Assembly: GCA_022566015.1 (NCBI GenBank)
Contig: JADFJT010000003.1
Span: 1 to 52,138, forward strand
Length of the DNA stretch: 52,138 nt
Direction of reading: 5' to 3'
Origin: Pseudomonadota bacterium
GTDB taxonomy: Bacteria; Pseudomonadota; Gammaproteobacteria; GCA-001735895
A model generated the notes under the pieces. It made no database searches, was not told the origin of the DNA, and saw nothing but the letters and a program-made list of their open reading frames with translations. The translations under genes were made by a program, and so were the position numbers. Each line of letters opens with the position of its first letter. Position 1 is the stretch's first letter. Below, piece by piece: positions 1-25,317 of this stretch.

Positions 1-591
1 CATCAGCAGGCGCCAGCCGGATTCCTGAAGTGGGTCGTATTCGACCAGCCGTTCAGCAGATTCGATTGCAGCGTGATATTGTGATTCGGCAATCTGAAGT
101 TGGCTTAAACTGGACAGGGCTTCGACGATCAATCGACGCAATCGATCGCGTTCTTTGGCCAGCCACTCCTGGCAGGCTGAATCGCGAATGGCGATTCCTT
201 CCAGGAATTCACCCTGGTAGAGCTCGGCTGCCTTAGACAGGTTTTCCAGCGTCGGATCGTCCACCAGTTGCTCGAATTCATGGGCATCGACCTGAACTTG
301 GTCAGTGACGAGCCTGACCGTCGTGCGTTCGATTTGCAAGAGATCGGGCACTTCTGTTTTGCAAGCCTTCTTGATCGAGCTAAGCGATTGACGAAGCGAA
401 TTTCTGGCCTGGTCTTCACCGCGATCACTCCACAGTAGATTGATCAGCCGGTCTCGCGGATGACGAATGCCAGGTGCCAACGCCAGGTAGGCCAATAGTA
501 CTTCGGATTTACGTGTTGACAGGCTCAAAGGCTTTCCGGAGGGCAGTTTGCACTCCATTTGGCCAAATAATTTGAGCTTCAAAACTGGCAT
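1..591 (-). CDS. SARP-family (OmpR-like wHTH + BTAD) transcriptional regulator, N-terminal part; runs off the window edge
   Basis: Manual translation from ATG at 591 (RBS-like CAGGA upstream): MPVLKLKLFGQMECKLPSGKPLSLSTRKSEVLLAYLALAPGIRHPRDRLINLLWSDRGEDQARNSLRQSLS...LYQGEFLEG...EWLAKERDRL...DPLQESGWRLLM. These are typical SARP/BTAD motifs. The frame is open to base 1, so it is missing from the ORF track. Confidence 0.85.
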   Translation of the reverse strand, partial: MPVLKLKLFGQMECKLPSGKPLSLSTRKSEVLLAYLALAPGIRHPRDRLINLLWSDRGEDQARNSLRQSLSSIKKACKTEVPDLLQIERTTVRLVTDQVQVDAHEFEQLVDDPTLENLSKAAELYQGEFLEGIAIRDSACQEWLAKERDRLRRLIVEALSSLSQLQIAESQYHAAIESAERLVEYDPLQESGWRLLM

Positions 592-663
592 TTCGTCCTG
601 GAGTCAGTTTAATTCGGATTTATTTCAAGTATAAATCCATTTTATTTCAATAGCTTACAATAT

Positions 664-723
664 TTAATGATTTTTTAATGATTATTTTGTGGGATTTAAT
701 GTCATTGCGCAAGGAAATTAATG
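664..723 (+). promoter_or_regulatory. Four helically phased TTAATG direct repeats, probable SARP operator
   Basis: TTAATG at 664, 675, 696 and 718 (spacings 11, 21, 22 bp) in the divergent intergenic region next to the SARP gene. Confidence 0.5.
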
Positions 724-779
724 CTCGCTTGCGAGAATGCCTCCGTCGAAAACAAACAAACAGCAAAGAGGCACCTAAA

Positions 780-1004
780 ATGAGAAGAGTAAGAACCTAT
801 ATAAACACCTACGATAACGCGTTAGTGATGTTTACTGCTGGAGTTGAGCGGATCGTTAGAGATCACATGACACATCCATCAGCATACGACGACCAGGAAT
901 TGCGTGCAATGGAAAGAACGTCAAAAAAGCAGACTGTGCCTATTAGTCTTTTTGCTGTTCTTGCGCAGCAGCTATTTTGGGGAAAGACCGGTCATCAATC
1001 TTAA
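780..1004 (+). CDS. Small hypothetical protein (74 aa)
   Basis: ORF track 678..1004; better start is ATG 780 with AGAGG RBS; divergent from the SARP regulator; no recognisable family. Confidence 0.5.
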   Translation: MRRVRTYINTYDNALVMFTAGVERIVRDHMTHPSAYDDQELRAMERTSKKQTVPISLFAVLAQQLFWGKTGHQS

Positions 1005-1110
1005 ATAATCAGCCGAAAGCGACGAGTGCCAGCAATCGGGACTCGACGTGGACTTTACGAAAATGTTGTGTAATCTATGATGCGTTGAAATTAAGTAAAA
1101 TAATAATACC

Positions 1111-1713
1111 TTGAAGATTTTGATTTTTGTCCTGCTGGTGCTGATCGCTAGCGAGGGAATGGCGCATAGCTTTAAAATTGGATTCGTAGCCCCGATGTCG
1201 GGGCCGCAGGAAGATTCTGGGCGGCAGGCACTCGATGGCTTTATGCTCGCTACCACTGAAGAAGATGCGCATGCAGATGAAGATTCGGACGGCCATCTCG
1301 GTGGTCTTGATTCTTACGTCATTGAAATCGACAGTTCGGCAGGTGATGCAACGACCATCGAGCGGATTGAGAATTTGGTAAGAAGCGATAAACCGCTATT
1401 TGTGGCAGGCCTTTTTTCAATGGATTTGGCCATTCAAATTGTAGATATACTGAAAAAAAATGGAACTGTCCTGGTCAATTCGTTTGACAGTACGATGTGG
1501 CGGCGGGTAGCCGAAACGCCGGATCAGCTCACCACGTTTGGAGGAGGATCGTTTAATTCGGCGTTTAAGAAAGCTTATGGTTATGCCCCGAACGCAAACG
1601 TTCTCCAGGGATATATCGCAGCCCGAATGATAGCGTCGACGGTTCGATCCCTGCCGGAATCGCTACTTGAAGACCGTGACGAATTGGCACGAGCGCTTAG
1701 CTGGATTCAGTAA
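1111..1713 (+). CDS. Short periplasmic binding protein-like (branched-chain amino acid/LivJ type) secreted protein
   Basis: Signal peptide, then FKIGFVAPMSGP..G..ALDGFMLA...LGG typical of the LivJ-type N-terminus, and F..AFKKAYGYAPN...QGYIAA typical of the C-terminus. Only 200 aa. Confidence 0.55.
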   Translation: MKILIFVLLVLIASEGMAHSFKIGFVAPMSGPQEDSGRQALDGFMLATTEEDAHADEDSDGHLGGLDSYVIEIDSSAGDATTIERIENLVRSDKPLFVAGLFSMDLAIQIVDILKKNGTVLVNSFDSTMWRRVAETPDQLTTFGGGSFNSAFKKAYGYAPNANVLQGYIAARMIASTVRSLPESLLEDRDELARALSWIQ

Positions 1714-1731
1714 TAACGCTAGCGGGCTAAT

Positions 1732-2280
1732 ATGGACAAAGACGTTAGCCAGGAACTACTCGATGTTGTTGATGAAAACGATCAGATCGTGGACGTTAAA
1801 ACACGCGGCGAAATTCATAAACTGGGCTTAATGCATCGTGCTTCGCACATCCTGGTGTTTAATAGCCAGGGGAAATTATTTCTTCAAAAACGCTCGATGA
1901 ACAAGGATGAAAATCCGGGTCTGTGGGATACCTCGGCGGCTGGTCATGTCGATAGTGGGGAGGATTACCTCGCCTGCGCGGTACGCGAACTCGACGAGGA
2001 ACTGGGTATATCGGGCGAGGTCTCTCTGATACTTTTATTTCGAATACCGGCATCGTCGCAGACAGGGATGGAGCACTGCGCAATTTATGCCTGCCAATTC
2101 GATGGGCCACTGACATTACAGGCCGAAGAAATTGACGAGGGGCTATGGGTCAGTCCGGAAATGATGAGCCAACGGGTAAAAGATTCAGATCCAGGTCTGA
2201 CCGAAGGGGCGAAATTAATCTGGAAACTGTATTGCGGGCGGTACGGTACTTCATCCTGGATAGATACTTTATCGGAATAG
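1732..2280 (+). CDS. NUDIX hydrolase (YfcD/IPP-isomerase-like)
   Basis: ELLDVVDEND, HRASHILVFN, LQKRS..KD..PGLWD, and Nudix box GHVDSGEDYLACAVRELDEELG. Confidence 0.85.
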   Translation: MDKDVSQELLDVVDENDQIVDVKTRGEIHKLGLMHRASHILVFNSQGKLFLQKRSMNKDENPGLWDTSAAGHVDSGEDYLACAVRELDEELGISGEVSLILLFRIPASSQTGMEHCAIYACQFDGPLTLQAEEIDEGLWVSPEMMSQRVKDSDPGLTEGAKLIWKLYCGRYGTSSWIDTLSE

Positions 2281-2307
2281 ACCTGCTCTAAATTTTGGTG
2301 GCTCGTC

Positions 2308-3567
2308 CTACGCGCTTTGAATTTGAATCTTTATATTATCCTGTTTTGGACTGAGTTGTGAAACCCAGTGAGAATCCAGGTGAAACCATCGATTGGGAAT
2401 GAGTTTTCGGAAAAATTGAGAATGTAATGGCTTCTCGCCCTGCCTGACTTCAATCGTCGTTTTACCCAAAAATTCAGCCGTGCGGAAAGTGAAGTGGTTC
2501 AGGGGCAGTTGAGTGTTATATTCTGGAACAATGATGTTTGGCGAAATCCAGACGAGCGGCGTATTCACTTCTATCAGTATACGGTTGTTCGTTGGCCAGA
2601 AGTTTGTGGACAAATAACTGACGATACAATCAGCGACGTGTTTTCCTTCCAGCGCGGCGGTATCGGCTTTTTCTACGCCATGCAAAAGGTTGCCGGCGGC
2701 GAAGATGCCTTGCTTTGAAGTTCTCAGATTTTGGTCAATTTCGGGACCCTTGGTATATTTGTTTAGCGTGATATTTCCTTTTCTGGCCAGGTCATGATCT
2801 GGAATCCAGTCACCAGTGAATATAAGTGTGTCGCATTCAAGTTGTTTTTTTTCTCCGGTTTGGGTGGAGGTAATTTCAATCGCCTCTACTCGATTTATTC
2901 CGTGAATATAGGAGACTTTATAATTGGTTAACAAAGGCGTGCGATAATAGAACCGGGTGCCCCAGTAAAATGGCAAATAGGTTTGGTGCTGGCCGTGTTC
3001 GGTGATCATTGCTGCTACCTCGGTGCCGCTGCTACGCAGGGTGTGTAGCGCTGAATAGCTGACGTGTTCGGCGCCTACGACGATGGCTTTTTTCCCTATT
3101 TTTAGTTTTTTTAGGTAGATCAGTTGTTGTAATGAGCCGGTATTGTATATTCCGCAGGGACGACTTCCAGGGATGAGCTTGGCGGCACGTGGCCGTTCGC
3201 GGCAGCCGGTGGTCAGTAGTATGGCATTGGCGGTGATGTTTTTTAAACCATCTGGACTGGTGACCTGTAGCGAATGATCGTCGGTCCAGTGTTGCGCAGT
3301 GGTTTCGGTGGCGATTTCTACTCCTGCCTGTTCTGCTCGTCGCACATTTATTTGTGCATAGGATGGGCCGTTAAGAAGTCGACGCAGGTCGAACCAACCG
3401 AAGCCGGTGTGATAACAATGTCGGGGTATGCCGCCGGCCTGTGATTCTCTATCGACGACCAGCACTTTTTCTACACCTAGTTTTCGTAGTTGGGTGGCGG
3501 CGGCGAGACCAGCAGGACCGGCGCCGATGATTAATACGTCGGTGTTAATTTGTTGCGGCTGAATCAT
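2308..3567 (-). CDS. FAD/NAD(P)-dependent oxidoreductase (pyridine nucleotide-disulfide family)
   Basis: DVLIIGAGPAGLAAA, GGIPRHCYHTGFG, TGCRERPR, GIFAAGN. Start moved to ATG 3567, immediately after the upstream gene's stop. Confidence 0.85.
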   Translation of the reverse strand: MIQPQQINTDVLIIGAGPAGLAAATQLRKLGVEKVLVVDRESQAGGIPRHCYHTGFGWFDLRRLLNGPSYAQINVRRAEQAGVEIATETTAQHWTDDHSLQVTSPDGLKNITANAILLTTGCRERPRAAKLIPGSRPCGIYNTGSLQQLIYLKKLKIGKKAIVVGAEHVSYSALHTLRSSGTEVAAMITEHGQHQTYLPFYWGTRFYYRTPLLTNYKVSYIHGINRVEAIEITSTQTGEKKQLECDTLIFTGDWIPDHDLARKGNITLNKYTKGPEIDQNLRTSKQGIFAAGNLLHGVEKADTAALEGKHVADCIVSYLSTNFWPTNNRILIEVNTPLVWISPNIIVPEYNTQLPLNHFTFRTAEFLGKTTIEVRQGEKPLHSQFFRKLIPNRWFHLDSHWVSQLSPKQDNIKIQIQSA

Positions 3568-3568
3568 G

Positions 3569-4984
3569 TTATTGGTCCACGGCCAACAGTTCGTTTTGGG
3601 ACATAGGACCCCATTGCGCCATGATTTCAACCAGCTCGGCGGTACAATAAAATCCCTGGCAGCGGCCCTGTAAGCAGCGGGTGCGTCTGCGTAGGCCATC
3701 CAGATTGGGGGGAGGCAATGGGGAATTCATCGCGTCGATGATTTCGCCCCGGCTGACTTGTTCGCAGTGGCACAGGATTCTGCCGTAATCCGGGTTTTGT
3801 TTGATGCAGTCCGGGTTGTGGCTGACCTTCTTATATTGGTCTTCTCCGAGATAGGGCATGGCGATGGATTTGAATGCGTCTGTGGGTTGCAGTGTCAAAT
3901 CCGATGCGCGCAGTAGCTCCACGACGTATTCTGCGATACCCATGGACCCGGAGAGGCCGGTGGAACGAATACCGCCGACACACAGATAGCGTTGTTTTTC
4001 GTCCAGATGGATTTGATAATCTTCATGTTCGGTGGCGGCTCGTAAGCCGGAATAAGTGGCGGTGATTTCTTCTTGTTGTAGTGCTGGAAGAATTTGTCGT
4101 CCCATTTTTTGCAACAATAGGTAACCGTCCTGGGTGGTGGCGGTATCGTGCTTATTGGGCAGGTCTTCGGCGGTTGGGCCTAATAACAGATTGCCAAAAA
4201 CCGTGGGGGCCAGCATGACGCCTTTGGTGGTTTGTGTGGGGACAGGAAGAATAATGTGTGACAGCAGGGAACGGGATGCCTTGTCGTAAATGATGAGTTG
4301 TCCTCTCCGGGCGGTGACCCTGAATCGGTTGTGACCGAATAGTTGGTCAATTTTATCGGAGTAAAGTCCGGCAGCATTGATGACCCAGCTGGCGTTGATG
4401 GTTTTTTGTCGGCAAGTGAGTTGGGTGATATTATTTCCCCGGGTGATGCTTGTTACCGGGTGGTTAAATAGAAAATCCACACCATTGATTTTTGCCTGAG
4501 TGGCGAAGGCCAGGACCGGGGTGAATGGGCAGATAATACCTTCTTCTTTTATATTAAGACCACCCAATACGCCGGGACCAAGATGTGGTTCTATCTGGTA
4601 TATTTGTGCCGCTGTCAGCGGATGTAAGGTTTCGCCATTTTTCCGCGCATCTTCCTCCAGGGCAGGAAGTTTGCCCAGCTGTTCCTGATTCCAGGCAACC
4701 AGGATTCCACCGGTGTGCTCAATGGGGATACCCACTTCTAACGCGTAAGATTTTAGCCGTTTAATACTTCGTTTGAGCAGGCGGGCTTCCAGCGAACCCG
4801 GGGGTGCATCAAAACCAGTGTGGAACAGGGCGGTGTTGGCTTTGCTGGTGCCGGCGCCAACATCCGGGCCGGCTTCAATCAAAACGGTGTTGAGCCGATA
4901 TTGTGCCAGCTCTCTTGCGATGGCGGTACCGACCACACCACCGCCGATTATTGCGATATCATAGCCTGGTTGAGTCATTTCCAT
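3569..4984 (-). CDS. FAD-dependent oxidoreductase (GlpA/L-2-hydroxyglutarate oxidase-like) with C-terminal BFD-like [2Fe-2S] domain
   Basis: IIGGGVVG, GTSKANTA, GGIRSTGL; C-terminal CHCEQVSRGEI...RRTRCLQGRCQGFYC. Confidence 0.85.
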   Translation of the reverse strand: MEMTQPGYDIAIIGGGVVGTAIARELAQYRLNTVLIEAGPDVGAGTSKANTALFHTGFDAPPGSLEARLLKRSIKRLKSYALEVGIPIEHTGGILVAWNQEQLGKLPALEEDARKNGETLHPLTAAQIYQIEPHLGPGVLGGLNIKEEGIICPFTPVLAFATQAKINGVDFLFNHPVTSITRGNNITQLTCRQKTINASWVINAAGLYSDKIDQLFGHNRFRVTARRGQLIIYDKASRSLLSHIILPVPTQTTKGVMLAPTVFGNLLLGPTAEDLPNKHDTATTQDGYLLLQKMGRQILPALQQEEITATYSGLRAATEHEDYQIHLDEKQRYLCVGGIRSTGLSGSMGIAEYVVELLRASDLTLQPTDAFKSIAMPYLGEDQYKKVSHNPDCIKQNPDYGRILCHCEQVSRGEIIDAMNSPLPPPNLDGLRRRTRCLQGRCQGFYCTAELVEIMAQWGPMSQNELLAVDQ

Positions 4985-5296
4985 TATTTACCAAATCACT
5001 ATTGCCCAGTGTTTCTGATTGGCGATTTTCTCTAGCTTCGAGTTGGCTCATGCGCAGTCATTAGATAATTTAAATGCAATGTTACTTTTTTGCTAAACGC
5101 AGTCAAACGATAGTCTTTACGCTTATCATGTCAAAATAAAAAATAACCATCGAATTTCTCGATCGACACTGAAGTAAAAGTGCAAATTGTTATGGCTACA
5201 GCGATGAATCGCTTAAATCACATTGGGAAAGTAGCGTGATTCAGGATGGTGTCCTGAACTCGATGTTATCTCGAATCTGGAATGCAGGACAAATAT

Positions 5297-6073
5297 CTAG
5301 CTAGCTTTAATAGCGGTAAACAACCCCCACCGATGATCGCCCGAGCCAGCCCTGTCAAGCTTCCCACGCCAGCTTTGTGCCAATTTTAATCGAATTGGTT
5401 CCGCTAAATCCAGGCCACTAATTTTACTCAATTCAGTCTGCAATATAACGATGAATCTATCAGTCAAATCCTGATGATCCACCTGCGTCAAACCAGCCCT
5501 GGAAATCAGCTTCACGTATTCGGGAAATGTATGCAAAAAATAATCCCGATCTTTAACATACTCGGAAAACTCGTCCGTCCAGCGTTTTTCACCGCAACAA
5601 TAGTCGGTAAACAACAATTTTCCACCGGGTTTTAGCAATGAGTTTAGCACTGAAAATAAGCGTGATTTGTCGGTAATATGCAAAAACACATCGCGGCTAT
5701 AAATTGCATCGTAGTACTCCGAACGATCCATTTCCAGACAGTCACCTTGTTCAAATTTAACGCATTTGGCTAATTGGTAGCCAGACAATTTTTTCCCCGC
5801 CAGTGCAAGCATATTTTTGGACAGGTCAATGCCATCGACAATCAATCCAAATTCGCGCGCCATCACAAATGCGCTACCGCCCAAACCGCAACCCACATCG
5901 AGCACCCGTGAACCGCGCTCAAGTTTCATTTTTCCAATCAGCTCCACTGCCATTTCATACCCACCAGGGCTGACAAAATCCTCGCCAAATACCGATTCAT
6001 ATTGTCGAATCGAAGCGGTTGAATATTGTGTCGAATCGAGGGCTTCCTGAGTAATTTCCCCTGACTGATTCAT
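5297..6073 (-). CDS. SAM-dependent phosphobase (phosphoethanolamine-type) N-methyltransferase
   Basis: QYS...YESVFGEDFVSPGG, VLDVGCGLGG, YDAIYSRDVFLHI, TDYCCG, EYVKDRDY and W.GK all match the plant PEAMT/Plasmodium PMT signature segments. Confidence 0.8.
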   Translation of the reverse strand: MNQSGEITQEALDSTQYSTASIRQYESVFGEDFVSPGGYEMAVELIGKMKLERGSRVLDVGCGLGGSAFVMAREFGLIVDGIDLSKNMLALAGKKLSGYQLAKCVKFEQGDCLEMDRSEYYDAIYSRDVFLHITDKSRLFSVLNSLLKPGGKLLFTDYCCGEKRWTDEFSEYVKDRDYFLHTFPEYVKLISRAGLTQVDHQDLTDRFIVILQTELSKISGLDLAEPIRLKLAQSWRGKLDRAGSGDHRWGLFTAIKAS

Positions 6074-6562
6074 CGAGGCCCCTGACTGATTGGTTCGAGA
6101 TGCTGAGGATAATTGTCACTCACCATCCATTTTCGGCAAGGCTCGTAACGGCCCGAGTATTGCAATTTATTCGAATACTTACCGGTCGGATTTTTTAATC
6201 TAAAACGGGTGAGATCGCCAGCATAGGTGATCGGTATGCTTTCCATAGTGAGTAGGTTACCCATCGATGCCATCGATATCGCTTTTAATTAATGACTTTT
6301 TACTAATACAGATATCGGGTAGCATAGTCGACCAGGGCCAGAAGGAACAGATACGAAATACTAATTCGGACTAGTTCATCGGCGATAGCGGGAATATCAT
6401 CGATAAAATTGGTTAAATTGTGATTCGTTTTACTTGTTTTAGACCGTGTCTGAGCGGTATGATGTCGTCTGGATAAAATCTTTATTTTTACCCAGTCAAA
6501 AATAATTACCTACTGGCTAGATTATTAATCGACGCCCACTAAACCTCTGGAGGAGAAGCAAC

Positions 6563-7600
6563 ATGATAACAAGAATATTCAAGAAGAGCGCATTGATAAC
6601 CTGCATTGCTGCGATATCAATGTTCGCATTTACTAACCCTGCATTCGCGGTTGATCTGACCGTATACACTGCTATTGAGGCAGAAGATCTTAAGCGTTAT
6701 GCAGAAACTTTTAACAAAGAGCACCCTGATATCAAAATCAAATGGGTGAGAGACTCTACAGGGATAGTTACCGCCAAGCTACTCGCGGAAAAAAATAACC
6801 CGCAAGCCGATGTTATCTGGGGAATTGCAGCAACATCCTTGCTGATAATGAAAGCTGAAGGGATGTTTGTAGCTTACGAGCCAAAGGGCCTTGAAAACCT
6901 GGACCCGAAATTTTATGACACTGACTCACCGCCCAGCTGGGTTGGTATGGATGCGTGGGTGGCAGCGATATGCTACAACACTATCGAAGCTGCTAAATAT
7001 AATCTGTCTCCGCCAAAAACCTGGTGGGACCTCACTAAAGCAATGTACAAGGGTCATGTGATCATGCCGAACCCGAATTCATCCGGAACCGGCTTTCTCG
7101 ATGTCTCCAGCTGGTTACAAATGTTTGGTGAAACCGGCGGTTGGGCCTATATGGATGCGCTGCATGAAAATATCGCGCGTTATACTCACTCGGGTTCCAA
7201 GCCCTGCAAACTGGCAGCCGCAGGGGAAATCCCAGTCGGCGTATCCTTTGCGTTTCGCGGTGCGAAATCAAAAGCCAAGGGTGCACCCATTGATATCATC
7301 ATTCCACGTGAGGGTATAGGCTGGGACATGGAAGCTTCTGCCATTATTGCCGGCACTGATAAACTGGATGCTGCGAAAAAGCTCATGGACTGGTCCATTA
7401 CCAAAACTGCCATGGAAATGTATAACACAGCTTATGCCGTAGTTGCGTATAAAGGCCTCGCAAAACCAGTGAAGTATTTCCCACCCGAAACGCTTTCCAG
7501 GTTGATTGACAATGATTTCGACTTTGCAGCCAATAACAGAAAACGAATTCTGGCCGAATGGCAAAAACGCTACGATTCAAAGTCTGATCCGAAGAATTAG
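6563..7600 (+). CDS. Putative 2-aminoethylphosphonate ABC transporter substrate-binding protein
   Basis: Signal peptide; LTVYTAIE, WVRDSTGIVTAKLLAEKNNPQAD, MPNPNSSGTG, YTHSGSKPC, R.RILAEWQKRY, all typical of the PhnS2 family. GGAG RBS. Confidence 0.85.
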   Translation: MITRIFKKSALITCIAAISMFAFTNPAFAVDLTVYTAIEAEDLKRYAETFNKEHPDIKIKWVRDSTGIVTAKLLAEKNNPQADVIWGIAATSLLIMKAEGMFVAYEPKGLENLDPKFYDTDSPPSWVGMDAWVAAICYNTIEAAKYNLSPPKTWWDLTKAMYKGHVIMPNPNSSGTGFLDVSSWLQMFGETGGWAYMDALHENIARYTHSGSKPCKLAAAGEIPVGVSFAFRGAKSKAKGAPIDIIIPREGIGWDMEASAIIAGTDKLDAAKKLMDWSITKTAMEMYNTAYAVVAYKGLAKPVKYFPPETLSRLIDNDFDFAANNRKRILAEWQKRYDSKSDPKN

Positions 7601-7619
7601 CATTGCGATTTGAGTAGGC

Positions 7620-7652
7620 TACGGCCTGATCGATGTCCAGGATCAGGCCGTA
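7620..7652 (+). other. Intercistronic 12-bp-stem hairpin after the SBP gene (mRNA stabiliser or partial terminator)
   Basis: TACGGCCTGATC-N9-GATCAGGCCGTA. Confidence 0.55.
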
Positions 7653-7715
7653 CCATTTCTGGCAGCTTACCAACTACACCCGCACCCATTCCCATCACCA
7701 AAATTACTATTCGAT

Positions 7716-8861
7716 ATGAGTGAACAGCAAGCGGTCAATACCGAGAATGCTAAGCCTTATCTTCAGATAGACCGGTTGACTAAAAAATTCGGCGATTTTA
7801 TTGCGCTGGACCAGGTATCACTCGATGTATTTGAAGGCGAATTCATTTTCTTTCTGGGGCCTTCGGGTTGCGGAAAGACAACATTTCTCCGAGCCCTGGC
7901 CGGTCTTGATATTCAAACCTCCGGAACGGTGCGGCAGGCTGGTATCGACATTTCGGCATTACCGCCATCGGAACGAGACTTTGGTATCGTGTTCCAGTCT
8001 TATGCGTTATTTCCAAACCTGACCTCTGAAAGAAATATCGCATTTGGCCTCGAAAATCAAAAGTTCAGTAAGGCCGATGTCGCCAAACGAGTATCCGAGC
8101 TGCTGGAACTGGTGGGGCTTCCAGAACAGGGTAAAAAGTATCCGGCACAACTGTCGGGTGGCCAGCAGCAACGCATTGCCCTTGCCAGGGCACTGGCAAC
8201 TTCACCGGGCCTGTTATTGCTCGATGAACCCCTATCCGCACTCGACGCGAAGGTACGCACCCATTTACGCCATGAAATGAAAGCGCTTCAGAGGCGGTTG
8301 GGCGTCACCACCGTGATGGTTACACACGATCAGGAAGAGGCGTTGGCGATGGCCGATCGTATCGTTGTCATGAATCAGGGCGTCATAGAGCAAATTGGCA
8401 CACCGACAGAAATTTATCGTGATCCCAGCACCTTGTTTGTCGCCGATTTTATCGGTGAGATGAATCAATTCAAAGGAAAGGCTGGCAGCAAGAATACTGT
8501 CACAATCGGTGATGTTACATTCGCTTCACAGGAACACGACATGCAACAGCATACACCTGTGATCGTTGCGATTCGCCCCGAGGACATAGTGCCCCATGGT
8601 GAAGGTGCAAGTTCTCAGAGAGCTACCGAATCGGGTTCTACTACGGAGAATATATTCGATGCCACAGTCGAAAATATGGAATTTTTGGGTTCATTCTGGC
8701 GGGTTTCGCTAAACACCACCTTTATTGGCGATTCGCAGATGGTTGTCGACATGTCGATAAATGCGGTTCGACACATGGATGTTGCGATTGGTCATTCAAT
8801 TACCGTAGAGTTTCAGTCAGATCGGCTACGGGTATTCCCGGCCGACACTCATACTGTTTGA
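7716..8861 (+). CDS. Putative 2-aminoethylphosphonate ABC transporter ATP-binding protein
   Basis: GPSGCGKT, LSGGQQQR, LLLLDEP, C-terminal TOBE-like region; operonic with the SBP. Confidence 0.85.
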   Translation: MSEQQAVNTENAKPYLQIDRLTKKFGDFIALDQVSLDVFEGEFIFFLGPSGCGKTTFLRALAGLDIQTSGTVRQAGIDISALPPSERDFGIVFQSYALFPNLTSERNIAFGLENQKFSKADVAKRVSELLELVGLPEQGKKYPAQLSGGQQQRIALARALATSPGLLLLDEPLSALDAKVRTHLRHEMKALQRRLGVTTVMVTHDQEEALAMADRIVVMNQGVIEQIGTPTEIYRDPSTLFVADFIGEMNQFKGKAGSKNTVTIGDVTFASQEHDMQQHTPVIVAIRPEDIVPHGEGASSQRATESGSTTENIFDATVENMEFLGSFWRVSLNTTFIGDSQMVVDMSINAVRHMDVAIGHSITVEFQSDRLRVFPADTHTV

Positions 8862-10888
8862 TGTCTATCTCGGTCGAAACGTCCGCCATACCTAGCGCCC
8901 CGATTATTCGTCCTAAAACCAGTAAGGACGATCGAACTATGATCGCCTTCATGCTGGTCATTGGCCTGTACCTGATTATTGCGCTGGCCTTGCCGCTCTA
9001 TGCGATGTTGTCCAAGTCTTTTTCGACTTATTCATTCGATTTGAGTAATTTTGAATTTCAGGTCGATAAAGGTGAGGGTTGGAGTGAGCCCATCACCGCC
9101 CTGGCTCTCAATGAAAATCTAAATGTGGTTAAACCCGAAGAGCTGAAAACCAGTTCCGACGGAAGGTTAGGGGTAACTGCATTTTTTCCCGATTTCAACT
9201 TCCGTAGTCCGACTAAATACAGGCTACGTCAAATAAGGCTCGATAGTTCTTTTTTGGTCGGCAGCAAGCGCGTCGCCGATACCGAGTGGCACGAGTATGA
9301 ATCGAACCAATTCAGGCGTATCGTCCTGCGCCCGTCATCTGCGACAGGGCTGGAAAATTTTCGCACTTATTTCTCGACACCTGCGCTTTTCCGTTCCATT
9401 GAAAATTCACTATTTATTGCCGTACTGAGCACCATAATAACCGTTAGCCTGGCATTTGGATTCGCTTATGCGCTTAATCGCAGCAAAATGCGTTTCAAAG
9501 GAGTATTTCGATTGATCGCCATGGCGCCGATACTGGTGCCATCCTTATTGCCGGGTATAGCGCTGGTCTACCTGTTTGGCAATCAGGGTATGATCAAGGG
9601 GATGTTGTTCGGCGAATCTATCTACGGGCCGATCGGAATCGTGATCGGGTCGGTGTTTTTTACCTTTCCACATGCCTTGATCATTATTACCACGGCGCTG
9701 GCCATTTCGGATTCAAGACTATATGAAGCTGCGATATCGCTGCGCGCCAGTCGCTGGAGAACCTTCTGGACAGTCACCATTCCTGGTGCCCGCTATGGAT
9801 TAATATCGGCAGCATTTGTTGTTTTCAACCTGGTAATCACCGATTTCGGTCTGCCAAAGGTCATTGGTGGTCAGTACAACATGCTTGCCGTGGATATTTA
9901 TAAACAGGTAATTGGCCAGCAGAATTTTGAAATGGGCGCAGTGGTCTCGGTAGTTCTGTTGATTCCGGCGTTATTTGCATTTTCTATTGACCGCTACGTA
10001 CAGAAACGACAGGTCGCTGTGTTGACGGCGCAATCGGTACCATTTGAAGCAAAGCCACATAAACAATTTGATTTGATCTGTCTTTGCTACTGCCTGTTGG
10101 TCGGTATATTCATTGTCGGGCTCATTGGCGTCTGTCAGTATGCCGCCTTGATCAAATTCTGGCCCTATCAGTTAAGTTTGAGTCTGGTCAATTATAATTT
10201 TGACGTGATGGACGGGGGTGGGTGGGCCTCTTATACCAACTCGATTCAATTGGGTATCTATACTGCGATTGCGGGCACTATTCTGGTTTTTTCAGGCGCC
10301 TACGTGGTCGAGAAAACTAACGGTTTTTTCGCTACTCGATCAGCCTTTCAGTTTCTTGCGATGATGCCGATGGCAATTCCCGGCCTGGTTCTGGGCCTGG
10401 CCTACATCTTTTTCTTTAACGATCCCGCCAACCCACTGAATGGCCTGTACGCGACCATGGGGATCCTGGTAATTTGTACCGTGACTCACTTTTACACGGT
10501 CTCACATCTCACCGCTCTTACTGCTTTGAAGCAAATGGACAGGGAGTTTGAAGCGGTCGCCTCATCCCTGAAGCAACCATTCTACCGACTGGTTTCGGGC
10601 GTTACGATCCCGGTTTGCCTGCCCGCAATACTGGATATATCGATCTACCTGTTCGTCAACGCCATGACGACTGTCTCGGCGGTCATATTTTTGTATTCTC
10701 CCGATACGGCACTGGCGGCAATTGCAGTACTCAATATGGATGATGCCGGTGATGTTGCGCCCGCGGCGGCGATGGGCATGATGATTTTCTATACCAATGT
10801 GGTCGCGCGCTTGATCCATCTGCTGATTTCACGAAAAGTATTACGCAGGACCCAGGCTTGGCGCTCGCGCGAGTCCGTTGCCGATTGA
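8858..10888 (+). CDS. Putative 2-aminoethylphosphonate ABC transporter permease (fused double TMD)
   Basis: Two EAA-loop regions (LYEAAISL, FEAVASSL), TDFGLPKVIGG, LNMDDAGD.APAAAM and C-terminal RRTQAWR. Confidence 0.85.
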   Translation: MMSISVETSAIPSAPIIRPKTSKDDRTMIAFMLVIGLYLIIALALPLYAMLSKSFSTYSFDLSNFEFQVDKGEGWSEPITALALNENLNVVKPEELKTSSDGRLGVTAFFPDFNFRSPTKYRLRQIRLDSSFLVGSKRVADTEWHEYESNQFRRIVLRPSSATGLENFRTYFSTPALFRSIENSLFIAVLSTIITVSLAFGFAYALNRSKMRFKGVFRLIAMAPILVPSLLPGIALVYLFGNQGMIKGMLFGESIYGPIGIVIGSVFFTFPHALIIITTALAISDSRLYEAAISLRASRWRTFWTVTIPGARYGLISAAFVVFNLVITDFGLPKVIGGQYNMLAVDIYKQVIGQQNFEMGAVVSVVLLIPALFAFSIDRYVQKRQVAVLTAQSVPFEAKPHKQFDLICLCYCLLVGIFIVGLIGVCQYAALIKFWPYQLSLSLVNYNFDVMDGGGWASYTNSIQLGIYTAIAGTILVFSGAYVVEKTNGFFATRSAFQFLAMMPMAIPGLVLGLAYIFFFNDPANPLNGLYATMGILVICTVTHFYTVSHLTALTALKQMDREFEAVASSLKQPFYRLVSGVTIPVCLPAILDISIYLFVNAMTTVSAVIFLYSPDTALAAIAVLNMDDAGDVAPAAAMGMMIFYTNVVARLIHLLISRKVLRRTQAWRSRESVAD

Positions 10889-11090
10889 CTAGGTTTTCCC
10901 CGCTATATTCCCTGCTCAGGCAGTTATTCCCGATGCTATTTTCTGCGGTGAAATGCCGTTAGGACAGTATTTGAGGATTTATTTCGACAGAAATAGCCTA
11001 TATGACACAAATATACTACTTGACTATATTCTTTTAATACATATAGTTACAATACATAGTTAATCTTAATTATAGTAACGAGAGGTAATT

Positions 11091-11204
11091 GTGGATATAA
11101 TTGATGTAGTTATGGAGGCAGTAATCACCAGCACGGCGCCCAGCACCTGGTTTTTGATTATTAGTCTTTTCTTTACCTACAGATACTTTCGAAAATCCCG
11201 GTAA
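11091..11204 (+). CDS. Putative 37-aa single-pass membrane peptide
   Basis: GAGAGG RBS, GTG start, MDIIDVVMEAVITSTAPSTWFLIISLFFTYRYFRKSR*: a hydrophobic stretch followed by a basic tail. Below the ORF-track cutoff. Confidence 0.4.
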   Translation: MDIIDVVMEAVITSTAPSTWFLIISLFFTYRYFRKSR

Positions 11205-11540
11205 GTTTCCACGACATCGGTATTCGCGTCTTTGGGTCGGCAAATTCCGACCCGATAGCTTCCTGACCCCGTTTGAAAATTGACTCCCAGCCAATTTAAG
11301 CTGTGAAACCCACAGCTTAGTCATTAGACTTTTTTTTATCCAGTGTGGGTAAGGTTTGTCATACCTACATTTATATAATTAAGCAACCTCTGAACAATTC
11401 GTCATGAATTGTCAGAGGACGTAAAACGAAAAATGTAATTTTCATTTTTCTCTCAAAATCGATATCTTGCAGGTATCGATTTTGGTGGCACATCCCTGTA
11501 CCATGGAATCTCTGAGTTAATCAGAGTTTTCTTAAGTGTC

Positions 11541-12245
11541 ATGACTAAAAATGCATTGATTGTCGGTGCCGGAAGTGGAAACAGCGCCTCTTTTGCCCGT
11601 GCTCTGGCTCGTCAGGGTGCCAAAGTTGCACTCGCTGCGCGTAATATCGAAAAGCTCGACCCGCTAACCAGTGACATCGACGGTATTTCCATCGCCTGCG
11701 ATGCTACCGATGCCGAGCAGGTAGCCGCGCTGTTTGAGCAGCTGGATCAGTCGATGGGAACGCTCGACGTGGTGCTCTATAACCCGAGTGCCTTTATCGC
11801 AGGGCCGGTTGCCGAGCTCGACCCTGCCAAAGTTCATCAGTCGCTAATGCAAACAGCCTTCGGGGCATTTTTGGTCGCACAGCAAGCCGCGAAACGTATG
11901 CAGCAGGCGGGTTCAGGGGCGATTTTTTTCACCGGCGCAACCGCCAGCATCAAGGGGTTCCCAAATTTCTCATCCTTTGCGATGGGGAAATTCGCCTTGC
12001 GAGGCTTGACTCAAAGTCTAGCGCGTGAACTGGGTCCAGCCAATATTCACATCGCTCATTTCATTATCGACGGCGGCATAGCTTCACCCGGTCGAGATTT
12101 GGAACAGCAGACACCAGCGAGCAATACCGACGATTCGATGCTGGAACCCGATGCCATTGCCGAAACTTACATGGCGGTATTAAATCAGCATCGCAGCGCC
12201 TGGAGTCTGGAGGTTGATTTACGGCCCTGGAAGGAAACATTCTAG
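11541..12245 (+). CDS. Short-chain dehydrogenase/reductase
   Basis: ALIVGAGSGNS, FTGATAS, F..GKFALRGL.QSLARELGP..IH.AH.IIDG. Confidence 0.9.
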   Translation: MTKNALIVGAGSGNSASFARALARQGAKVALAARNIEKLDPLTSDIDGISIACDATDAEQVAALFEQLDQSMGTLDVVLYNPSAFIAGPVAELDPAKVHQSLMQTAFGAFLVAQQAAKRMQQAGSGAIFFTGATASIKGFPNFSSFAMGKFALRGLTQSLARELGPANIHIAHFIIDGGIASPGRDLEQQTPASNTDDSMLEPDAIAETYMAVLNQHRSAWSLEVDLRPWKETF

Positions 12246-18452: not shown

Positions 18453-19172
18453 TCAGGTCTGGTGGAGCACCAATCCGCCGAGGCCAGAAATATCGTCTAA
18501 CACAATATCCGCTATCTCCTCTAGCTCGCCCCGGGTACTGGCTCCGGTGAGTACGCCGACGCAAAGGCCAGCATCGGCATTTTTCCCCATTTCTATATCG
18601 TGGCGATTGTCGCCGACCACGATTACTTCGGCGGGTTCCAGCGAAAATTCGTCGCAAAATGCCATTACCATTCCGGGGTCGGGTTTGACCCCGTGGCCGC
18701 TATCGTAGCCGCAGAGGAAGTCGAACACAGAAATCACGTCAAATGATTGCAAGGTACTAAGGATACCCTGATAGCTGTCGCTAGTGGCCACTCCGAGTTT
18801 GAGCCCGGCCTGTTTCAGTTCCCGCAAAGTGGTTTGCAGGCCATTGACTGGGGTCGAGTGGAGTGCCCCCTGTTGCTGGAATAAATGGTTTAATCGGGTG
18901 CAGATGGCCTCGATTTGCGCTTCGTTCTCGATTCCGGGCAAATGCTTTGACCAGGCGATACCGATTTCTCGGTTATTTCCGGCAGCTAGCAACGAGCCAC
19001 CAATTATACGGTCGGTTTCAAGATCGTAACCATGCTGACTCAGCAATTCATCGGCTAGTTGCTGATCGTTGTTGCTTACTGCAAGGGCGGAGAACCGGTA
19101 AACAGGTAGCCAGGTTGCGTGGAAGTCGATCAGTGTTCCATCCTTATCGAAAACGACACCTTTGTATCTCAT
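18453..19172 (-). CDS. HAD-superfamily phosphatase (phosphoglycolate phosphatase-like)
   Basis: FDKDGTL, ATSD, KPDPG, VGDN.HD motifs I-IV. Confidence 0.85.
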   Translation of the reverse strand: MRYKGVVFDKDGTLIDFHATWLPVYRFSALAVSNNDQQLADELLSQHGYDLETDRIIGGSLLAAGNNREIGIAWSKHLPGIENEAQIEAICTRLNHLFQQQGALHSTPVNGLQTTLRELKQAGLKLGVATSDSYQGILSTLQSFDVISVFDFLCGYDSGHGVKPDPGMVMAFCDEFSLEPAEVIVVGDNRHDIEMGKNADAGLCVGVLTGASTRGELEEIADIVLDDISGLGGLVLHQT

Positions 19173-19203
19173 AAGTCGTCACCGCCTTCGGGAAGTATTC
19201 GAG

Positions 19204-19758
19204 TTATAGCAGTAATAGTGATTCGAGTTTTTCTCTATAGCTTCCAACCGGTTTGATATCAAGACCGGCCACCTTGCCATCGTCATCGTAGAGACGGACT
19301 TTTATCGCCGCCCGGTGGTGATAATTTGCTTTAAAAATCTCGATCTCCGCTTTTTCCATCGGTCCGCCCTGAACCTGTAGTGATTGTTTAGATGCCGAGG
19401 ACAGATTTTCGAAATAATGGTCATCGACCGCGCACAGGTACTTCTTCGCTGCAACATGCAAGCGGATCGGTTCTGTGACGGATGACGGATAGTATGGCTC
19501 AAGAAACTTGGCGCCGATCTCCTGATGGCGATTGTCGATGCCATTTTCCAGCGAATCGATCGGAAAATCGCCGACAAAATGGCCGATATCATGTAGTAAT
19601 GCGGCGATCACCATGTCGTCGGGCGCGGCATCGACTACCGCACAGGCCGCCGATTGCTCCATGTGTTGCGCCATACTCACCGACTCACCCATATATTCTT
19701 CCGCGCCACGCTGGGCGAATAAATCGAGTATGAATTCTACAATAGTATCGCGATTCAT
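19204..19758 (-). CDS. HD-domain di-iron oxygenase, PhnZ/TmpB-like
   Basis: EEYMGESVSMAQHMEQSA, AALLHDIGH, DNRH, IRLHVAAKKYLCA, LS.AS..SL..QGGPM, R.YDD.GK. Confidence 0.8.
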   Translation of the reverse strand: MNRDTIVEFILDLFAQRGAEEYMGESVSMAQHMEQSAACAVVDAAPDDMVIAALLHDIGHFVGDFPIDSLENGIDNRHQEIGAKFLEPYYPSSVTEPIRLHVAAKKYLCAVDDHYFENLSSASKQSLQVQGGPMEKAEIEIFKANYHHRAAIKVRLYDDDGKVAGLDIKPVGSYREKLESLLLL

Positions 19759-19761
19759 CGA

Positions 19762-21057: not shown

Positions 21058-21116
21058 TATTATTTTGCCTCGATGCCTGGTCTGCAACCGATTCTAAATT
21101 GATAGGAGGCCAATGG

Positions 21117-23651: not shown

Positions 23652-23660
23652 GAATCTGTT

Positions 23661-25202: not shown

Positions 25203-25288
25203 CGCACAGGTATCCAGAGCTAGTTTTTGGTGCGGAAACTTTAGGTAGCCTCCTGACTTGCGTCAAACAATAAATACTGTCACCATGT

Positions 25289-25303
25289 ATAAGTAAATCT
25301 TAT
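25289..25303. promoter_or_regulatory. LysR T-N11-A operator
   Basis: ATAAG-TAAAT-CTTAT palindrome between the divergent mttB and lysR genes. Confidence 0.55.
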
Positions 25304-25317
25304 TCGAAAATAAGCAC

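Follow-up and report, generated by a model that had tools for sequence, protein, structure and literature searches.

The window analyzed here (the whole stretch of gammaproteobacterial DNA, 52,138 nucleotides in length) encodes on its reverse strand, at positions 5297 to 6073, a single-domain homologue of phosphoethanolamine N-methyltransferase (PMT) of 258 amino acids. This gene diverges from a complete ABC transporter on the forward strand, which consists of a periplasmic substrate-binding protein whose N terminus resembles a signal peptide (PhnS2, 6563 to 7600), an ATPase with a TOBE domain (PhnT2, 7716 to 8861; Pfam ABC_tran and TOBE_2), and a fused double permease of 676 amino acids with two BPD_transp_1 stretches (PhnU2, 8858 to 10888). 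All three components exceed the equivalog cut-offs of the NCBIfam models for 2-aminoethylphosphonate (AEP) importers (TIGR03261, 504 bits versus 393; TIGR03265, 515 versus 458; TIGR03262, 778 versus 593), the last of which covers PhnU2 residues 162 to 670, so that some 160 residues at the N terminus lie beyond the family match. The 489-bp region between the two units (6074 to 6562) gave no Rfam match, no promoter-like site in a simple scan, and no alignment with the regions upstream of relatives' phnS2. Contigs from an RNA-labelled run fall on 6901-7084 and 7144-7345, within phnS2. The earlier note had described both the complete, divergent transporter and the absence of typical AEP catabolism genes beside it, and both descriptions hold: none of phnW, phnX, phnA, or phnY is adjacent to the locus in the window.

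On the other side of the methyltransferase gene lies a reverse-strand gene (3569 to 4984) for a glycerol-3-phosphate-oxidase-like FAD oxidoreductase with a DAO domain and a C-terminal BFD-like 2Fe-2S domain (Pfam DAO and Fer2_BFD), whose best PDB match is L-alpha-glycerophosphate oxidase (4x9m, E 1.8e-43). Its probable partner subunit is a Pyr_redox_2 flavoprotein encoded on the same strand (2308 to 3699); the Pfam match begins at residue 54 of this long open reading frame, and translation probably starts near 3558. In the closest relative, G010, the two genes are again adjacent (86% identity for DAO, 82% for the flavoprotein) and lie next to a Nudix gene, with no methyltransferase gene beside DAO. 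The DAO gene is a neighbor of the methyltransferase gene, not its partner. The interval that holds the methyltransferase and transporter genes is anchored by an NF011922-like Nudix hydrolase gene on the left (1732 to 2280, forward strand) and by an SDR oxidoreductase gene with NCBIfam SDR matches on the right (11541 to 12245, forward strand), and its content differs among relatives. G012 and G048 have the order Nudix-PhnS2T2U2-SDR, with phnS2 directly adjoining Nudix and, in G012, SDR following phnU2, and in G010 the Nudix, flavoprotein, and DAO genes are followed by a 3' remnant of phnU2 and then SDR. The gene order in the window is not an assembly artifact. Three metagenome contigs, at 96 to 98% nucleotide identity, carry phnS2, methyltransferase, DAO, and flavoprotein genes in this order, and contigs from other runs bridge DAO, methyltransferase, and phnS2 (X1 record 5, 4371-6593; X19 record 19, 2959-6345).

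Judged by its sequence, the product of the methyltransferase gene is a true member of the PMT/PEAMT family, as the earlier note had supposed. Its Pfam matches are to SAM-methyltransferase domains. In phmmer searches of PDB sequences, PMT structures are the top 11 matches (E 3e-63 to 2e-39), led by the C-terminal domains of Arabidopsis PMT2 and PMT1 (5wp5, E 3.4e-63; 5wp4, 2.7e-61) and including nematode PMT-2 (4krh, E 1.8e-42; 4ine, 1.2e-41) and Plasmodium PMT (3uj6, E 2.3e-42), whereas the first methyltransferase outside the family, MitM, follows far below (E 4.8e-15). Assignment as a sarcosine/dimethylglycine methyltransferase was considered and rejected: the putative enzyme of this type in the PDB (2o57) reaches only E 7e-11, and model NF041675 scores 44 bits against a cut-off of 550. 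The motifs listed from the sequence beforehand (QY, YE..FG, SRD..LH, TDYC, Y...R.Y, and W..K) are real, and all ten mapped active-site residues of PfPMT (3uj6_A Q18, Y19, Y27, D128, H132, Y160, Y175, R179, Y181, and K247) are identical in the alignment to window residues Q16, Y17, Y25, D128, H132, Y158, Y172, R176, Y178, and K238. Among these, Tyr17 and His132 would be catalytic, and Tyr25, Tyr158, Tyr172, Arg176, Tyr178, and Lys238 would bind phosphate. These roles are assigned by alignment from PvPMT, whose residue numbers are three lower than those of PfPMT; in the excerpted text of PMC4357015, Y16 and H129 of PvPMT form the catalytic dyad, and Y24, Y157, Y178, and R176 bind phosphate.

The protein aligns over its full length with the solved eukaryotic enzymes (3uj6, 4mwz; 4krh, 4ine; 5wp4, 5wp5) as one methyltransferase domain spanning residues 9 to 256, with the Tyr/His dyad, Asp128, and the Tyr/Arg/Lys phosphate cage identical. 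It resembles the Plasmodium enzymes in being single-domain and of similar size (258 versus 266 amino acids), whereas the plant and nematode enzymes have two domains; only the C-terminal domain of the plant enzyme matches it well, the N-terminal domain scoring 13 to 15 bits. PfPMT performs all three methylations, and PMT-2 of nematodes, like the C-terminal domain of the plant enzyme, performs only the last two; the window enzyme may follow either pattern. A marine-sediment bacterium carries an intact version of the enzyme with which plants and the malaria parasite convert phosphoethanolamine to phosphocholine. The bacterial enzymes PmtA and Pmt also use SAM to methylate the nitrogen of an ethanolamine head group three times, according to excerpts of PMC12139422 and PMC13669648. 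Theirs, however, is the head group of the lipid phosphatidylethanolamine, in the known bacterial route to phosphatidylcholine, whereas the window enzyme has the soluble-phosphobase pocket of the PMTs, a distinction that we draw from the descriptions of PmtA and Pmt.

By sequence comparison, the enzyme belongs to a large clade in uncultured marine Gammaproteobacteria, in which the usual neighbor is a choline/ethanolamine kinase. A gene of the Choline_kinase/APH family lies within 500 nt of the homologue in 47 of 80 genome loci; of the 52 loci that extend 1.5 kb or more to each side, 31 have it. It adjoins the homologue in 37 of 44 metagenome loci. These counts are not independent, as many loci duplicate one another or stem from related metagenome-assembled genomes. 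The kinase gene is likewise beside the methyltransferase gene in all six genus relatives examined, which are themselves among the 80. A quick maximum-likelihood tree places the window protein in a group of 11 sequences with a support of only 82 (SH-aLRT), the other 10 of which are all kinase linked; this group is nested in a clade of 62 (support 100) with 46 kinase-linked members. Homologue loci often also hold genes for an OpuAC-type importer and for a dimethylglycine-dehydrogenase-like protein, and these neighbors, together with the kinase, point to a route from ethanolamine to glycine betaine. The window enzyme is 55 to 71% identical to the copies in these clusters and nests among them, yet it lacks an adjacent kinase, OpuAC importer, or dimethylglycine-dehydrogenase-like gene and has, where the clusters have those genes, the GlpO-like flavoprotein pair and PhnS2T2U2. 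At typical loci the enzyme adjoins an importer and a kinase; in the window it adjoins an importer for compounds that contain phosphorus from the outset.

Homologues without the kinase adjoin genes of methylamine and choline-type metabolism, namely MttB, Rieske, or GMC-oxidoreductase genes. The methylamine-catabolic genes among the clade's neighbors (MttB-like, dimethylglycine-dehydrogenase-like, GMC oxidoreductases) are odd for a biosynthetic enzyme, and we found in the literature no measured activity for any bacterial member of the clade. Both points suit the idea that a PMT-fold enzyme has drifted to a substrate other than a phosphobase, so that the phosphocholine reading would be wrong for the whole clade. 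We regard this as quite unlikely, as the ten phosphate-binding and catalytic residues are invariant across 34 bacterial homologues, the conserved neighbor is an enzyme of the choline/ethanolamine kinase family whose expected product is the phosphobase substrate itself, and the NF041675 score is far below its cut-off.

By its sequence, PhnS2T2U2 is a predicted aminophosphonate importer of the AEP type that would serve catabolism. Its PhnS2 belongs to SBP_bac_6 (PF13343), the fold shared by the binding proteins of the experimentally studied systems AepXVW and AepSTU (AepX and AepS), according to part of the text of PMC8316502, and AEP is its predicted ligand, although the locus has no adjacent phosphonate catabolic gene. 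The word phosphoethanolamine does not occur in that paper (PMC8316502). At its other loci in the genus, PhnS2T2U2 has PbfA (674 bits, cut-off 525) and PhnW (526 bits, cut-off 296) as neighbors, without a methyltransferase gene; PbfA, PhnW, and FAD enzymes are its conserved partners.

The earlier note had tied the methyltransferase to this transporter in a coupled route of phosphobase or phosphonate methylation. Of that proposal, the PMT identity stands, and in the literature we found no characterized route of free-phosphobase methylation in bacteria; the coupling is not supported. Neither PhnS2 nor PhnU2 is encoded beside a methyltransferase homologue in any of the 80 genome loci or 44 metagenome loci, and methyltransferase and transporter genes lie on different contigs in all seven genus genomes that hold both. 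Their presence in the genus is uncorrelated: PhnS2 exceeds its cut-off in 7 of the 13 genomes that have the methyltransferase and in 6 of the 11 that lack it. The earlier note had named a lack of linkage between homologues and phosphonate genes as a result that would refute the proposal, and no such linkage appears at these loci; beside kinase-less homologues there were none in the 10 loci listed (37 annotated neighbor proteins). Nor is there support for the suggestion that the enzyme feeds the downstream HD/demethylase operon: the HD oxygenase occurs in 48 of 60 genus genomes, with or without the methyltransferase, and methylation at the expense of SAM merely to demethylate afterwards would be wasteful. 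The adjacency looks like a lineage-specific, local rearrangement of genes rather than a new pathway for phosphonate methylation.

The coupled route itself, in which PhnS2T2U2 imports AEP or phosphoethanolamine and replaces the kinase as supplier of a phosphorus-bearing amine to an enzyme making mono-, di-, or trimethyl-AEP or phosphocholine, is in our judgment unlikely. In its favor, the divergent arrangement is genuine and stably present in several sediment populations, a genome that is 96.2% complete lacks the usual kinase, and purifying selection still acts on the gene. N-methylated AEPs occur commonly as natural products, a paper on their catabolism does not contain the word methyltransferase (PMC10590968), and the phosphate cage might take a phosphonate. 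However, besides the missing linkage, the enzyme nests among kinase-linked orthologues with its pocket residues all unchanged. None of its six specific substitutions at conserved columns (M115, R164, D177, F183, L195, and E214) falls on a mapped ligand residue, and solved PMTs have K, G, or Q at position 177. AEP is one atom shorter between nitrogen and phosphorus and is thus no isostere of phosphoethanolamine. Moreover, the window PhnS2 is an ordinary orthologue (72 to 77% identity) of the genus copies that adjoin PbfA or PhnW, and no PEP mutase in the genome is above cut-off, so the cell would have no phosphonate biosynthesis of its own.

Is the methyltransferase gene still maintained? No orthologue of the methyltransferase-linked kinase was found in the genome; the best match, on C74, is 28% identical, looks like a GntI/thiamine-kinase-type protein, and lies beside a class-V aminotransferase gene. 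The gene could accordingly be pictured as the stranded, currently functionless leftover of a broken operon, a picture to which G010 lends some color with its methyltransferase gene in two pieces (one in-frame TAG) beside a kinase fragment, as does a syntenic locus in the same genome (C148) that lacks both genes. We consider this highly improbable. The window open reading frame is full length with all catalytic residues and is likewise unbroken in three more population contigs, and its 13 synonymous and 7 nonsynonymous differences from a population variant give, on these small counts, a dN/dS of 0.146, like that of the neighboring DAO gene (0.15 to 0.21). By these sequence measures the gene is functional and under purifying selection.

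We conclude, with a probability of roughly 0.65, that the locus holds a functional bacterial PMT of a phosphocholine-making clade, here without its kinase, set by rearrangement beside an AEP-type importer. The enzyme would use SAM to N-methylate a free phosphobase, the Tyr/Arg/Lys cage holding the phosphate and the Tyr-His dyad serving amine methylation; we infer that phosphoethanolamine, its mono- and dimethyl forms, or both are converted to phosphocholine. In the clade, the gene would normally be cotranscribed with the choline/ethanolamine kinase gene in a route from ethanolamine through phosphoethanolamine, phosphocholine, and choline to glycine betaine. Here, the kinase neighbor would have been lost, and the gene would have come to sit in the variable Nudix-SDR interval beside PhnS2T2U2. 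Against this conclusion, the absence of a kinase orthologue leaves the source of phosphoethanolamine unaccounted for, yet purifying selection persists, and an importer of phosphorus-bearing cargo in the kinase's place is what one would expect to see if the supply did not depend on a kinase. In the genome, no betaine-aldehyde dehydrogenase is above cut-off (best 502 bits versus 669), and no LicD or phosphocholine phosphatase was identified, so the fate of the product is one that we infer. A sink does exist, as BetA, encoded on C139, exceeds its cut-off (813 bits).

We conclude that the 258-aa methyltransferase encoded at 5297..6073 on the minus strand is, judged by sequence, a member of the phosphoethanolamine N-methyltransferase family (PMT; EC 2.1.1.103), as the earlier note had claimed. 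The gene lies on contig C82 of a metagenome-assembled genome (2.97 Mb, 197 contigs, 96.2% complete). When the protein was searched against all PDB chain sequences, the top 11 matches were all PMTs (E values of 3.4e-63 to 2.1e-39), comprising the C-terminal domain (residues 238-490) of Arabidopsis PMT2 and PMT1 (3.4e-63 and 2.7e-61), nematode PMT-2 (1.8e-42 and 1.2e-41), and the Plasmodium PMTs (2.3e-42 to 2.1e-39). The first match outside the family was the unrelated methyltransferase MitM, at 4.8e-15. The N-terminal domain of plant PMT, in contrast to the strongly matching C-terminal domain, reached only 13-15 bits. Pfam covers the protein only with generic class I SAM-methyltransferase domains (Methyltransf_25/11/31, residues 52-170, E values of 1e-17 to 1e-18), and no NCBIfam model matched it at its cut-off, while its glycine-rich SAM loop, VLDVGCGLGG, aligns with the loop of solved PMTs. 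Identity as a sarcosine/dimethylglycine N-methyltransferase was rejected (44 bits against the 550-bit cut-off of NF041675; PDB 2o57 at only E 7e-11).

The active site gives the same picture. In an alignment to 3uj6_A, ten PfPMT residues (Q18, Y19, Y27, D128, H132, Y160, Y175, R179, Y181, and K247) are all identical in the window protein, where they correspond, in the same order, to Q16, Y17, Y25, D128, H132, Y158, Y172, R176, Y178, and K238; all ten are also invariant across 34 aligned bacterial homologues. The motif list drawn up for this protein in the earlier note was therefore correct in every detail. Among the ten, we take Q18, D128, Y175, and K247 of PfPMT to be active-site residues, with Y175 and K247 presumably binding phosphate. 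The predicted phosphate-binding set of the window protein would thus comprise Y25, Y158, Y178, and R176 together with Y172 and K238, identical to PfPMT and invariant, and the Tyr-His pair is kept as Y17/H132, likewise invariant in the 34 homologues. An excerpt of PMC4357015 assigns PvPMT a putative catalytic dyad, Y16/H129, and phosphate ligands at Y24, Y157, Y178, and R176; PvPMT numbering is that of PfPMT minus three, so that Y19/H132 of PfPMT is Y16/H129. Six columns with at least 85% conservation bear a substitution unique to the window protein (M115, R164, D177, F183, L195, and E214); at one of them, 177, solved PMTs have K, G, or Q. None of the six falls on a mapped ligand residue, and a remodelled pocket was rejected as a property of this enzyme.

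The window enzyme is thus of a known kind, within a bacterial clade that deserves biochemical characterisation. Database searches returned 1206 homologues at E values up to 0.001; the best 120 of these are 61-99% identical and come mostly from marine metagenomes, and a few of the homologues carry the JGI/NCBI pipeline name "phosphoethanolamine N-methyltransferase." No characterised bacterial PMT was found in full-text literature searches that reached a minority of subscription journals. A scan with one genome per species gave 80 homologue loci at 43-71% identity. Their hosts are nearly all uncultured Gammaproteobacteria (Arenicellales, Acidiferrobacterales, Granulosicoccaceae, Poriferihabitaceae, and one Thioglobus), with a few Chloroflexota and others, and the clade is concentrated in uncultured marine lines, sponge-associated ones included.

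Most of these homologues have a characteristic neighbour. Among the 70 of 80 loci whose methyltransferase was recovered by a crude ORF caller, the top neighbour cluster, assigned by Pfam to Choline_kinase/APH, is present in 36, mainly immediately upstream on the same strand. By the more robust tblastn count, a kinase lies within 500 nt of the methyltransferase in 47/80 loci, and in 31/52 of those with at least 1.5 kb on both sides. Further recurrent neighbours are PhyH and TauD dioxygenases, EamA, an FAD/GcvT protein resembling dimethylglycine dehydrogenase (DMGDH-like), and an OpuAC-type ABC importer; by tblastn, DMGDH-like genes occur in 21/80 and MttB-like genes in 8/80 loci. Ten loci with no kinase match were annotated (37 neighbour proteins). 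They include MttB at two loci (L005 and L006) and Rieske oxygenase with GMC oxidoreductase at two others (L036 and L039), and phosphonate genes are absent among the 37 proteins. A metagenome scan that excluded the window's own population added 44 loci, and a kinase-family gene adjoins the methyltransferase in 37 of them (35 of these match cluster representatives at 63-78% identity and 2 at 27-28%); five of the seven kinase-less loci are on contigs shorter than 3 kb. The counts are not independent, since several loci of the genome and metagenome sets share a contig or derive from related MAGs.

In many metagenome loci, the recurrent order is methyltransferase, kinase, OpuAC-family binding protein, ABC ATPase, fused permease, and DMGDH-like gene (L131, L135, L139-L141, L153, L154, L158, L159, L161, L169, and others), often with YaaA upstream. 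A biosynthetic methyltransferase set amid genes for uptake and demethylation is an odd setting.

A quick maximum-likelihood tree of 75 sequences places the window protein inside this kinase-linked assemblage. It belongs to an 11-row group (SH-aLRT 82) whose remaining ten rows are all kinase-linked, and this group is nested in a larger clade with support 100, in which 46 of 62 rows are kinase-linked. The nearest relative of the window protein, from a genome of the same genus (L001, genome G014), is 70% identical and has the kinase 21 nt from the methyltransferase. The bacterial kinase-PMT cluster, in which the kinase adjoins the PMT gene on the same strand, differs in this respect from the window copy: window positions 1..12000 hold no kinase gene, so that arrangement is missing from the locus. 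The closest match to the linked kinase in the same genome is only 28% identical; it is encoded on contig C74 beside a class-V aminotransferase and shows NCBIfam kinship to GntI and thiamine kinase.

What stands beside the window copy instead, across a 489-bp gap, is a divergently transcribed importer of the 2-aminoethylphosphonate (AEP) type, with all three components above their NCBIfam equivalog cut-offs: PhnS2 at 6563..7600 (504 bits against 393), PhnT2 at 7716..8861 (515 against 458), and PhnU2 at 8858..10888 (778 against 593), all on the plus strand. The divergent arrangement described in the earlier note is confirmed. The window gene order is real: it is found on three metagenome contigs at 96-98% nucleotide identity, contigs of other runs span 4371-6593 and 2959-6345, and at least 86% of the window's sampled words recur in each of 19 runs, which belong to about six or seven studies of marine sediment.

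Could the importer, then, supply a phosphorus-bearing amine and render the kinase dispensable? The PMT would in that case methylate imported AEP to N-methyl-, dimethyl-, and trimethyl-AEP, or imported phosphoethanolamine to phosphocholine, and the window layout does mirror the usual set of importer, kinase, and methyltransferase minus the kinase step. We nevertheless consider this improbable. The pocket is unchanged, AEP has one atom fewer than phosphoethanolamine between N and P, and PhnS2 in the window is a regular orthologue of the catabolic copies. The pairing with PhnS2T2U2 recurs in none of the 124 other loci (partly overlapping): tblastn with the window proteins found PhnS2, PhnU2, and the two flavoproteins on the other side of the methyltransferase (DAO and PyrRedox) in none of the 80 genome loci, and PhnS2 in 0/44 metagenome loci. 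A functional link between methyltransferase and AEP transporter, as put forward in the earlier note, is thus not supported. Were the enzyme fed with imported AEP, it would be the first identified aminophosphonate N-methyltransferase, and we found no description of such an enzyme.

The genus itself suggests how the adjacency arose. Among 24 relatives sampled, 14 had matches to the methyltransferase at the search threshold and 13 were counted as carriers, namely, 12 with strong matches and one with a fragment at a contig end (G015); a match at 32% identity in G009 is not an orthologue and was left out. PhnS2 scores over its cut-off in 30/61 genus genomes, our own counted. It is present in 7/13 carriers versus 6/11 non-carriers, so there is no association within the genus, and the seven genomes with both genes have them on different contigs in every case. 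The interval between a Nudix gene (1732..2280) and an SDR gene (11541..12245) varies among relatives. In two of them (G012 and G048), PhnS2T2U2 follows Nudix immediately, and in G012 it continues into SDR, ureidoglycolate-lyase-like, 4HBT, ABC, and ABC-2 genes, collinear with the window from 11541. The closest relative (G010) has Nudix, PyrRedox, and DAO (81-86% identical to the window's), then 491 bp that include a fragment of a HAD-IB hydrolase gene, then the final 505 bp of phnU2 (corresponding to window 10384-10888), and SDR. The segment at 8970..9965 of contig C183 (L115) is a recent deletion scar: a 491-bp replacement and a 172-aa remnant matching positions 383-546 of the PhnU2 model are found where the window has the methyltransferase gene, phnS2, phnT2, and the 5' portion of phnU2. 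The Nudix-SDR interval thus holds different cassettes in different species, and the window order of PyrRedox, DAO, methyltransferase, and PhnS2T2U2 is one state of it. Another contig of the closest relative carries a methyltransferase gene broken into two pieces, with one TAG, next to a fragment of a kinase gene; the syntenic site in our own genome (contig C148, around 20.8-23.0 kb) has neither gene.

We therefore favor, at a probability of roughly 65%, the joint reading that the window protein is a soluble SAM-dependent phosphobase N-methyltransferase that makes phosphocholine and that the shuffling of cassettes in a variable interval brought it next to PhnS2T2U2. Its substrate and the number of methylation steps we infer from its family: it would convert phosphoethanolamine and/or its methylated intermediates to phosphocholine, as the kinase-linked orthologues most likely do. 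The enzyme family assigned in the earlier note thus stands, while the coupling to the transporter does not, given that neither recurrent linkage nor association in the genus was found; comparative evidence gives no backing to a phosphonate methylation pathway at this locus. The window would then hold a further bacterial copy of the phosphobase-methylation route to phosphocholine known from plants and parasites. Its own contribution is a naturally kinase-less variant on which selection still acts, and the sharp question is the origin of its phosphobase. Head groups freed in phospholipid turnover are a possible source of phosphoethanolamine.

The kinase-less gene does not resemble a remnant in decay. 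Compared with a population variant (L123), it has 13 synonymous and 7 non-synonymous differences, a dN/dS of 0.146 that, on these small counts, indicates purifying selection; the value for the neighbouring DAO gene is 0.15-0.21. The one clearly RNA-labelled run (X20) yielded contigs on phnS2 and phnU2 and none on the methyltransferase; such contigs show neither absence nor level and so are uninformative on its expression. Two runs labelled "metatranscriptomic WGA" (X17 and X19) have even coverage throughout and may be DNA. As to the fate of the product, conversion of phosphocholine to choline and on to glycine betaine is our guess. In the same genome, BetA choline dehydrogenase scores over its cut-off on contig C139, BADH stays under its cut-off, and no LicD was found. 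A second BetA-like GMC oxidoreductase (C148, 25205-26788) scores 652 bits, below the 732-bit cut-off, and lies a few kilobases from the site syntenic with the decayed kinase-methyltransferase locus of the closest relative. Since the 1206-homologue clade is tied to choline/betaine-type genes, it could genuinely supply sediments and holobionts with choline and glycine betaine.

The transporter has a context of its own. No phosphonate catabolic gene adjoins it in the window. At 12 other genus loci, whose PhnS2T2U2 proteins share 68-85% identity with those of the window, a DMGDH-like gene lies within a few kilobases in 8, and NCBIfam annotation of four of these loci identified, beside the transporter, PbfA (674 bits against 525; a second copy, truncated at a contig end, scored 442), PhnW (526 against 296), a GlpD-like FAD protein, and a MetE-like protein. 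PbfA is (R)-1-hydroxy-2-aminoethylphosphonate ammonia-lyase. These loci are a genuine aminophosphonate context, and the FAD/GcvT gene hints at N-methylated substrates; an excerpt of PMC10590968 describes N-methylated aminophosphonates as common and in need of dedicated oxidases. Within about 6 kb on either side of phnS2T2U2, a recurrent cluster (L095, L096, L097, L098, L100, L092, and others) comprises the DMGDH-like FAD/GcvT gene, PbfA, a 535-aa GlpD-like FAD protein, phnU2-T2-S2, and a 350-aa MetE-like protein, with PhnW in one locus. It looks like a catabolic island for hydroxylated, perhaps N-methylated, AEP. Our own genome has PbfA on another contig (C184, 678 bits), and PhnW, PhnX, and PEP mutase do not exceed their cut-offs in it. 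The window's PhnU2 begins at a TTG that overlaps the phnT2 stop, and about 160 N-terminal residues (8858..9340) lie outside the TIGR03262 model, with a hydrophobic segment within the first 45; PhnU2 of relatives is similarly long (669-682 aa).

A shared regulatory element in the divergent region was considered and rejected. At a permissive E value, Rfam had no match in 4900..6700 or in the phnS2 upstream region of one relative; a simple promoter scan returned two sites, fewer than the shuffled mean of 4.4 and both located upstream of the DAO gene (5079-5134); and the window intergenic region could not be aligned with the relatives' phnS2 upstream regions. At PbfA-type loci (L092, L093, L095-L098, and L100), a conserved promoter-like block, ATCGAAGCAATCTATATT ... 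GGGTAGAGTA, lies about 180 nt upstream of phnS2, and the same set has a leader about 150 nt long whose CCGG repeats form hairpins. Rfam gave no match for either, and both are absent upstream of the window's phnS2. RNAalifold placed only 10 pairs in the leader (-5.5 kcal/mol, with a positive covariation term), and covariation is weak.

On the other side of the methyltransferase, at 2308..4984 on the minus strand, is a gene pair. One gene encodes a DAO flavoprotein whose C-terminal domain is a BFD-like 2Fe-2S domain, the other a Pyr_redox_2 flavoprotein (PyrRedox). The long ORFs overlap by 131 nt; the Pyr_redox_2 domain begins at residue 54, so the true PyrRedox start is probably near 3558. Fourteen other genus genomes carry the pair at 38-45% identity. 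In the closest relative it is 86% identical and adjoins Nudix with no methyltransferase, and a role as partner of the methyltransferase (e.g., N-methyl-AEP oxidase) was rejected. The top solved relative of the DAO protein, well over glycine/sarcosine oxidases, is the Mycoplasma L-alpha-glycerophosphate oxidase 4x9m (E 1.8e-43). This glycerol-3-phosphate oxidase kinship and a score of 47 bits against the 285-bit cut-off of TIGR03364 also told against the partner role.

A minus-strand operon with a divergent LysR gene occupies 18453..26205, 8 kb downstream of the transporter. It encodes a HAD hydrolase (18453..19172), an HD-domain oxygenase (19204..19758), a 441-aa URO-D-like protein (19762..21087), a DMGDH-like protein with DAO and GcvT domains (21117..23651), and an MttB-family methyltransferase (23661..25202); the divergent gene (25318..26205) encodes a GcvA-like LysR regulator. 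The HD oxygenase scores below cut-off for TmpB, its best model (218 bits against 300), and for Phn-HD (183 against 215), and there is no TmpA/PhnY-type hydroxylase in the operon. Its gene is present in 48/60 genus genomes irrespective of the methyltransferase. The operon (18453..25202) may act on a hydroxylated, N-methylated aminophosphonate, cleaving it to glycine betaine and then demethylating the latter.
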